Of a stretch of DNA of 24,000 nt, positions 5,818 through 6,670 are shown one piece after another. Made by a program: the position numbers and the translations under genes. Position 1 is the stretch's first letter, and each line of letters starts with the position of its first letter. This DNA is from Mycoplasma ovis str. Michigan (GTDB lineage Bacteria; Bacillota_I; Bacilli_A; Mycoplasmatales; Mycoplasmoidaceae), in assembly GCF_000508245.1 (NCBI RefSeq), contig NC_023062.1, forward strand, positions 423,254 to 447,253. Reading direction: 5' to 3'. The notes under the pieces are model-generated. The model did no database searches. It saw only the letters and a list, made by a program, of their open reading frames with translations, and was not told the DNA's origin.

Positions 5818-6207
5818 TTATTTTTTCTTCTTTTTCTTGTGTTGTTCAATTAAAAATTGGTAGCATTTCTCCAAGGTATTAACATCTTTTTTGCCATAAA
5901 AACCAAAACCGCAAAAATCATCCTCTCTAGTTTTTATAAATTTTTCTCAATCTGAATTCAACTTTTGTTTTAATGGTTCTGTGATATAAGGATTTTCCTC
6001 TGGTGAACCTTCTCCATCTTGCTTAAATTCTGTTTGTTCCATAAAATCACAGATCTCTTGATCTAGCAAACATCTTTTTCCAAAACCTACATCTTCATCT
6101 GGGGCTTTTACAACTTCCGAATTAGGAAGTTGAGTGGCAATTAAATAAGGCCCAGTACCTATTGAACTACCAACAAATATTGAAGTAAGTATCTTTTTTA
6201 ATAACAT
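5818..6207 (-). CDS. Hypothetical small secreted 4-Cys protein, paralog 1, embedded in the S10 operon (129 aa)
   Basis: Track ORF 5947-6207 continues through TGA 5947-5949 to TAA 5818-5820. The N-terminus MLLKKILTSIFVGSSIGTGPYLIATQ looks like a signal peptide. Two internal (D/E)(D/E)D-x-GFG...C...C half-repeats are followed by a poly-Lys tail. I recognise no family. Confidence 0.7.
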
Positions 6208-6254
6208 CTCTGGGTTATTTCACTAACTTTAAAGTCACTCTTTGGTAACATCTT

Positions 6255-6670
6255 TTACTTCTTCTTAGCCTTTTCTTTTTGTTGTTTAATTAAAAATTCA
6301 TAACACTTCTCCAAATTATTTACATTTCTTTTTTGGCCTCTAGTTTCAAAAAAGCCAAAACCACAGAAATCATCATCTCTTTTTGCTATGAATTTTGTTC
6401 AATCTTCATCCAATTTGCTTTGTAAGGTAGGTGTAATGTATTTATTCTCTTCTTTTTTCCCTTCTGAGTCCTGCTTAAATGATGTTTCAGCCATAAAATC
6501 ACAGATCTCTTGATCTAGCAAACATCTTTTTCCAAAACCTACATCTTCATCTGGAGCCTTTACAACGCCTGAATTGGGTAATTGAGTTGCTACAAAATAA
6601 GGCACAGTACCTATTGAACTACCCATTGTTAATGAAGTCAATATCTTTTTCAGTAACGTGGGGGGGACAT
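6255..6670 (-). CDS. Hypothetical small secreted 4-Cys protein, paralog 2; its ATG is currently out of frame with the body across a C7 tract (candidate phase-variable gene)
   Basis: The body (track ORF 6399-6641, extended through TGA 6399-6401 to TAA 6255-6257) is paralogous to 5818-6207. The only ATG (6668-6670) is followed by TCCCCCCC. With 7 C it terminates after 13 codons. With 8 C it would read MSPPTLLKKILTSLTMGSSIGTVPYFVATQ..., in frame with the body. Confidence 0.6.
6660..6666 (-). repeat. Homopolymer C7 on the coding strand (G7 on +), directly after the paralog-2 ATG
   Basis: Read directly: cgtg ggggggacat. It is one of only four G/C runs of 7 nt or more in the window. Confidence 0.95.

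Follow-up and report, generated by a model that had tools for sequence, protein, structure and literature searches.

Two genes between rplW and rplB

The window, by which we mean the whole stretch of DNA that was analysed, comprises 24 kb (24,000 nucleotides) of the genome of Mycoplasma ovis str. Michigan (NC_023062.1, positions 423,254 to 447,253), and the subject of this report is a pair of small genes found there inside the S10 ribosomal protein operon, between rplW and rplB. In the canonical S10 order of Fusobacterium, Clostridium, Bacillus and E. coli this junction is without any gene (PMC1924603). Translation table 4 (UGA = Trp) was used for the open reading frames (ORFs) of the window; table-11 ORFs are interrupted at TGA, and with table 4 the minus strand gives the normal S10/spc operon order of rpsJ (8577-8888), rplC (7873-8565), rplD (7175-7864), rplW (6684-7184), the two extra ORFs, rplB (4943-5794), rpsS, rplV, rpsC, rplP and the remaining S10/spc genes. 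The rplW gene encodes an L23 of 166 aa with a K/E-rich C-terminal extension (stop codon TAG at 6684-6686), which is 100% identical to the L23 of M. ovis and matches PF00276, and rplB encodes an L2 of 283 aa.

Of the two genes, both already annotated as hypothetical proteins, the upstream copy, paralog-2 (6255-6670, minus; OVS_02650 / WP_043901192), has its frame broken here by a run of seven cytosines (C7), and the downstream copy, paralog-1 (5818-6207, minus; 129 aa), is 100% identical to OVS_02645. The first-pass annotation of this DNA, which was made from the letters alone, had described two co-directional paralogous ORFs at the junction; two copies, 72-73% identical to each other, are indeed present on the minus strand, but ATG 6670 does not open paralog-2. 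The gap lengths that it gave are exact in table-4 coordinates: 13 nt between rplW and paralog-2 (6671-6683; TTAAAAGGGTAGC, with a weak AAGGG purine stretch ahead of the ATG), 47 nt between the two copies (6208-6254) and 23 nt between paralog-1 and rplB (5795-5817), all on the minus strand. It had also reported neither promoter nor terminator in these gaps, and this was borne out. Sigma-70 and terminator consensus scans gave nothing on the minus strand within 5794-6684, the 47-nt gap included, TANAAT is absent from the minus strand throughout 5790-6700, and Rfam found no RNA element in the rplW-rplB interval. As the paralogs have neither a promoter nor a terminator consensus to themselves and lie upstream of some 20 essential ribosomal genes, the simplest reading is that they would be co-transcribed with the ribosomal genes, which supports what had been proposed at first pass.

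A 129-codon open frame is unlikely to arise by chance at 32% GC, and that the two ORFs are real genes is settled by homologues in other species. A gene on the plus strand was rejected, the only candidate being a 70-aa antisense ORF which is not conserved.

A small-protein family of the hemoplasmas

When a profile built from the two copies was run with HMMER against all 1.84 billion representative proteins, it retrieved five further small proteins, all of the hemoplasma type (E 7.6e-33 to 1.5e-4), and one spurious ankyrin protein. With an eight-sequence profile the matches were WEN_01690 of M. wenyonii, one protein of Candidatus (Ca.) M. haemominutum, and MHLP_02935, MHLP_02730 and MHLP_02880 of Ca. 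M. haemolamae (E 2e-42 to 5e-26); a homologue in M. wenyonii INIFAP02 was added by a genome scan with tblastn, and PRV_01710 of M. parvum clusters at 90% or above with one of the Logan matches. A word-indexed search retrieved the M. ovis pair only. For both copies and all eight family members, Pfam and NCBIfam scans were empty at E up to 10, no match came from a sequence profile search of PDB, and a JGI metagenome scan for the family gave no relatives. The first-pass annotation had recognised no family, which the profile searches that it recommended have overturned; judged from the profiles, OVS_02645 and OVS_02650 belong to a conserved small-protein family restricted to the hemoplasmas, the hemotrophic mycoplasmas that live in blood. 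A match to a known ribosome-associated family, which it had named as grounds for abandoning its view, was found in none of Pfam, NCBIfam and PDB. Fourteen columns of the family alignment are invariant (G17, P20, F42, G43, C46, L47, L48, C53, D64, D97, C99, G102, N110 and C115) and make up a set of motifs, namely G-x-x-P in the leader, FG-x-x-CLL-x4-C, D-x-C-x-x-G and N-x4-C; both window copies carry all 14.

The family gene is found at the rplW-rplB junction in at least five hemoplasma lineages besides M. ovis. On the same strand as rplW and rplB, and flanked by them, a homologue is present in two lineages of M. wenyonii (Massachusetts and INIFAP02), in the related Logan contigs SRR26391074 and SRR10197851, in Ca. 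M. haemominutum, in the M. parvum-like contig SRR12063320 and in a hemoplasma contig filed under Plasmodium vivax. In these species the gaps around it measure 2-33 nt, the exception being the 120 nt that precede the gene in Ca. M. haemominutum. These lineages are deep, since identity to M. ovis falls to 46% for L23 and to 79% for L2; for the family protein it falls to 27-50%. Cargo genes at this junction had been called very unusual at first pass, and a comparison of S10 operons with relatives had been suggested; the comparison shows that the insertion is not peculiar to this genome, the gene being an old occupant of the junction in several hemoplasmas, and only the tandem duplicate is confined to M. 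ovis. Copy number is two in M. ovis, three (dispersed) in Ca. M. haemolamae and one in the other species, and the duplication is thus specific to M. ovis among species with a gene at this junction. In Ca. M. haemolamae the operon is broken at rplW-rplB; over 10 kb of unrelated, co-directional small ORFs with hydrophobic N-termini come after rplW (CP003731 292641-303243; locus L014 10001-20603), and there is no rplB there.

The contig filed under P. vivax (KQ235637.1, 440,775 bp, in the ‘North Korean’ assembly GCA_000320685.2) carries Lon, rplJL, a complete S10 operon and the family gene; it is probably contamination from a hemoplasma of the host animal, and its L23 has been named as a P. vivax protein. 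A second additional gene of the operon, a conserved ORF of 74 aa that is acidic and has no Pfam match, lies between rpsC and rplP in M. wenyonii and a related contig (locus L001 7358-7582; locus L002 7408-7632). M. ovis lacks it, and there rpsC (3455-4180) and rplP (3029-3442) are separated by 12 nt.

The N-terminus of paralog-1 is MLLKKILTSIFVGSSIGTGPYLIATQ, of which residues 1-24 form a signal-like leader comprised of the n-region MLLKK and a 19-residue segment with a Kyte-Doolittle mean of 1.39; across the family the best 19-residue mean is 1.1-1.4. A conserved G-P-Y-x-x-A in the leader would give a cleavage site that is plausible by eye (between LIA and TQ in paralog-1), with Pro at -5 and Ala at -1. 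The basic n-region and hydrophobic h-region that characterize a Sec signal are both present and, with its Gly-rich h-region and conserved Pro -5 and Ala -1, the N-terminus looks like such a signal. A lipoprotein was rejected, as the first Cys is residue 46 of paralog-1 and the equivalent residue of paralog-2, which leaves no lipobox; within the family a Cys inside the leader occurs in MHLP_02935 only.

The body of paralog-1 is acidic, holds Cys46, Cys53, Cys99 and Cys115 and ends in a KKKKKK tail, and the net charge of the body is -4 to -10 in all family members except M. ovis paralog-2. The Gly-rich hydrophobic leader described at first pass was thus recovered in paralog-1, with its basic start; the four conserved Cys and the lysine tail, described there too, are present in both window copies, with the Cys at aligned positions, but the Lys-rich tail occurs in M. 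ovis only, the remaining family members being without it. Cys spacing in the family is C-x6-C and C-x15 to x35-C, and a zinc ribbon was rejected as this spacing is not that of two CxxC/CxxxxC knuckles.

Values of dN/dS (Nei-Gojobori) were estimable for 15 of 21 pairs and were below 1 in all 15, with 0.25 between paralog-1 and paralog-2 (dS 0.78) and 0.16-0.73 for orthologue pairs with unsaturated dS. By these estimates the family is evolving fast under purifying selection. Free decay of the interval in relatives, which the first-pass annotation had put forward as evidence that would count against it, is therefore not what was found. Paralog-2, with its dN/dS of 0.25, is not decaying freely either, and its interpretation as a freely decaying pseudogene was rejected on this value and on its intact frame.

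A block of 21 codons in paralog-1 (PDEDVGFGKRCLLDQEICDFM; 6040-6102, minus) is 100% nucleotide-identical to 6492-6554 (minus) of paralog-2. There is no nucleotide difference in these 63 nt, whereas elsewhere 35% of the codons for the same amino acid differ between the copies (P ~1e-4). The same block in other species has only 67-68% nucleotide identity, and thus the identity is better explained by gene conversion than by a nucleic-acid element, the matching block of paralog-2 being read as a putative conversion tract.

Other features of the ribosomal region were noted. Hemoplasma L23 proteins are long (139-200 aa in the window and in loci L001, L002, L003, L004, L007 and L008), with K/E-rich C-terminal extensions that vary in length and are encoded directly upstream of the inserted gene. 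A tRNA-Thr(GGT) lies at 8931-9004 on the plus strand, opposite to and between rplL (9050-9472, minus) and rpsJ, in the stretch expected to carry the S10 operon promoter, and a full-length class B RNase P RNA lies at 10072-10457 (plus; 219.7 bits). Between lon and rplJ there is a 208-aa ORF with a hydrophobic N-terminus (11138-11764, minus), relatives of which occupy the same place in M. wenyonii INIFAP02 (loci L010 140-1422 and L015 907-1533); to judge from this conservation it looks like another hemoplasma-only gene beside ribosomal genes.

The poly-C tract and the frame of the upstream copy

The upstream copy had been described at first pass as an ORF of about 129 aa that begins at its ATG. 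This does not hold in the window, as ATG 6670 is succeeded by a T and then by the C7 tract (6660-6666, minus; G7 on the plus strand), which begins one base after the ATG and leaves the long ORF in the -1 register relative to it. In the C7 state the frame from ATG 6670 has 13 codons (MSPPRYWKRYWLH; 6629-6670, minus) and is closed by a TAA stop at 6629-6631, 2 nt before the in-frame ATG 6626. When the two copies were aligned with their flanks, the codon aligned to the ATG of paralog-1 was ACG in paralog-2, and the poly-C tract corresponded to CCCAGAG upstream of paralog-1. The annotated starts of paralog-2, TTG 6641 in RefSeq (128 aa) and ATG 6626 in GenBank (123 aa), both cut into the leader and were chosen because the ancestral start is ACG and ATG 6670 is out of frame.

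With eight cytosines (C8) the upstream copy encodes an intact protein of 138 aa (MSPPTLLKKILTSLTMGSSIGTVPYFVATQ...). The 90% cluster of paralog-2 includes a 138-aa member (MSPPTLLKKILTSLTMGSS...), which is encoded on the ENA metagenome contig ERZ27230476 and the Logan contig SRR5812416, and both have C8. ERZ27230476 aligns with the window over 12,417 nt at 99.976% identity, with two substitutions (at 10974 and 620) besides the C7/C8 indel; in SRR5812416 (987 nt, no mismatches) this indel is the sole difference. The C7/C8 difference is the only indel in the 12.4 kb alignment, and the tract exceeds every other G/C run of that span in length. G/C runs of seven or more are enriched approximately ten-fold in the window, which holds four of them where first-order Markov simulations give an expectation of 0.39. 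The tract lies in 5' coding sequence, is mononucleotide, sets the frame and differs in length among M. ovis assemblies, which are among the properties of a contingency gene, and the pattern fits the simple-sequence contingency loci.

Further runs in the window were noted. An hsdS-like gene (22421-23594, minus) is split by a G8 run, with tracts at 22686-22693 and 23204-23211 in the same gene; loss of a single G would yield an hsdS-like protein of 390 aa that contains two Methylase_S stretches, and hsdR lies not far away (18390-21569). The split gene may encode a phase-variable specificity subunit of a type I restriction system, or it may reflect a further homopolymer problem of the reference. 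An ORF at 23773-24000 (plus), whose N-terminus is hydrophobic and rich in Gly (MKFSGGALTKGKIAGGCVVLLGG...), continues past the end of the window and has a G8 at 23784-23791, three codons after its TTG start.

Proposed role, alternatives and significance

We hold with modest confidence that these genes encode an old, clade-restricted small protein which is exported by Sec and transcribed with the ribosomal genes, and which has been duplicated in M. ovis, where the upstream copy is switched by its poly-C tract. The ancestral position of the family would be inside the S10 operon, between rplW and rplB, where a polymerase heading for rplB and the approximately 20 essential genes downstream would have to transcribe the paralogs as well, thus tying their mRNA supply to ribosome synthesis. 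The leader (basic n-region, Gly-rich h-region, Pro -5, Ala -1) would act as a Sec signal and direct export and, as the N-terminus is basic and the body acidic, the positive-inside rule would put the body, some 105 aa long, on the outer side of the wall-less cell, where blood plasma would be expected to favour disulfides in the C-x6-C and C-x15-35-C pairs. The parasite, attached to erythrocytes, would then make the product constitutively and either display it on its surface or release it. In the upstream copy of M. ovis the ancestral ATG would have been lost (to ACG) and replaced by a new ATG 11 nt upstream that is read through the poly-C tract, such that C8 would give the full 138-aa precursor, and C7 a stop after 13 codons and at most a form without the complete leader, from TTG 6641 or ATG 6626. 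The tract would therefore serve as a slipped-strand on/off switch for one copy, with the downstream copy always on. A surface or released, host-facing role of the family is the most likely one, and this we suggest with moderate confidence; adhesion, immune interaction or some other role is possible.

However, this interpretation should be considered with caution, as a number of points weigh against it. The hydrophobic segment of the leader is just moderately hydrophobic, and signal peptidases I and II have been reported missing from M. suis (PMC3091866), which makes cleavage uncertain, and the leader may stay as a membrane anchor. Structure prediction, which had been recommended at first pass alongside the profile searches, gave mostly helical models of low confidence in two AlphaFold2 runs with an eight-sequence alignment (pLDDT 60.7 and 54.4, with three and two helices respectively), and these are unusable for Cys pairing for that reason; a Foldseek search of PDB with the low-confidence model gave one meaningless match (E = 6.3). 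The three family members of Ca. M. haemolamae lie elsewhere in its genome, dispersed within arrays of unrelated small ORFs, and residence in the operon is thus not essential for function. Finally, a homopolymer error in the reference, and not phase variation, could account for the difference between C7 and C8, and the two C8 samples may not be independent of the reference.

This last possibility, in which C7 is an assembly or consensus error of the Michigan reference and paralog-2 is an always-on 138-aa gene without phase variation, is credible enough to be taken seriously, although we would not expect it to prove correct. C8 is found in two of the three M. ovis assemblies, in surroundings that are 99.98-100% identical, and the break of hsdS at a G/C homopolymer could suggest a systematic homopolymer problem in the assembly. 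However, the reference (702,511 bp, 31.7% GC) was obtained by Illumina HiSeq and MiSeq sequencing at more than 1000x coverage (PMC3907730), a chemistry which is not prone to homopolymer errors. The roughly ten-fold over-represented long G/C runs of this 32% GC window are placed at gene 5' ends or inside hsdS, as contingency loci usually are, and the poly-C tract is derived from the CCCAGAG that is still present upstream of paralog-1.

The gene could alternatively be a neutral hitch-hiker, a member of a small-ORF family in a tolerant intergenic spot from which clean removal is unlikely, in which case its position would be uninformative as to expression or importance. Hemoplasma genomes are dynamic, with 32.4% of the M. 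ovis genome in paralog families (PMC3907730; PMC3958358), and both the extra ORF between rpsC and rplP of M. wenyonii and the small ORFs that follow rplW in Ca. M. haemolamae, with its family members in ordinary arrays, would accord with such an origin. Against this, 14 residues, the four Cys among them, are invariant although L23 is only 46-66% identical, no estimable pair reaches a dN/dS of 1, and the frame is intact in every species examined. The protein itself is thus under selection, whatever the reason for its location, and we regard neutral residence as unlikely.

A role in translation or co-translational export, on the cytoplasmic or membrane side and as a membrane-tethered and possibly metal-binding partner of the ribosome or Sec, would account for the location of the gene in a ribosomal operon, comparable to that of secY in the spc operon, but we think it quite improbable. 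The place of the gene among ribosomal protein genes is conserved in at least six lineages, the protein has four invariant Cys, its leader motif G-x-G-P-Y is unusually conserved for a signal peptide, which would ordinarily drift freely, and hemoplasmas encode many proteins with hydrophobic N-termini yet reportedly miss the known signal peptidases, but the basic N-terminus and acidic body predict an N-in/C-out topology, the Cys spacing is unlike that of a zinc ribbon, family identity of 27-50% against 79-95% for L2 means far faster evolution than that of the ribosomal neighbours, Ca. M. haemolamae has its three copies dispersed among variable small ORFs, and no ribosomal or translocon family is matched.

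The favoured reading, that of an exported protein transcribed with the ribosomal genes, has partial parallels in known systems. Non-ribosomal genes do occur in ribosomal operons, such as secY, adk, map and infA in the spc operon, and these resemble the present case in that they lie among ribosomal genes without a promoter of their own and are transcribed together with them. However, they are universal housekeeping genes at the spc end, whereas the rplW-rplB family is clade-restricted, fast-evolving and probably exported. Similarly, mycoplasma surface genes such as vaa of M. hominis and p78 of M. fermentans are phase-variable through poly-A tracts in 5' coding sequence, and they share with paralog-2 a mononucleotide run just after the start and a frame that is switched by a one-base difference between samples. 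The M. ovis tract differs from these in being a poly-C of just 7-8 bases, in a gene which does not encode a lipoprotein and which lies within an essential operon, and its difference in length is one between assemblies. The general principle of homopolymer phase variation has been set out previously (PMC2831843).

With the paralog families of small hypothetical proteins in M. suis, M. haemofelis and M. parvum (PMC3091866; PMC3958358) the rplW-rplB family has in common small size, a Gly-rich hydrophobic N-terminus, the lack of homologues outside hemoplasmas and tandem duplication, and its Ca. M. haemolamae members are situated inside arrays of such ORFs. It differs from them in its fixed syntenic position in the S10 operon, its four invariant Cys and conserved motifs, and in the purifying selection estimated here as opposed to the diversifying selection reported for the large hemoplasma families (PMC3958358). 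A large paralog family for antigenic variation was rejected, as two copies were found for M. ovis and their dN/dS is 0.25. A search of the accessible literature on the locus tags found no paper mentioning the OVS_02645/02650 family, and the hemoplasma comparative-genomics paper does not discuss the rplW-rplB junction, nor do its supplements mention the locus tags (PMC3958358). Neither the family nor its conserved S10 position, neither the duplication in M. ovis with its conversion tract nor the poly-C polymorphism appears to have been described.

The rplW-rplB junction is normally fixed across bacteria, and a gene that has been kept there under selection while several hemoplasma species diverged is a rare natural case, with a non-ribosomal and probably exported product tied to the transcription of a ribosomal operon. 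Hemoplasmas are uncultivable, and over half of their genes carry a hypothetical annotation. A surface or released protein that is small, conserved and probably abundant would be a practical candidate for serodiagnosis and for studies of attachment to red cells. The poly-C difference, together with the homopolymer-split hsdS, provides a concrete and checkable lead on phase variation in hemoplasmas. In its fullest form, which we put forward tentatively and would sooner expect to fail than to hold, the proposal would put a phase-variable gene in the middle of an essential ribosomal operon, where it is perhaps tolerated because Mollicutes are thought to lack Rho-type polarity: this clade, by retaining the gene within the most conserved of bacterial operons, would tie a disulfide-stabilised, exported, host-facing protein to ribosome synthesis, and to this M. 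ovis would have added a duplicate with a poly-C contingency switch.

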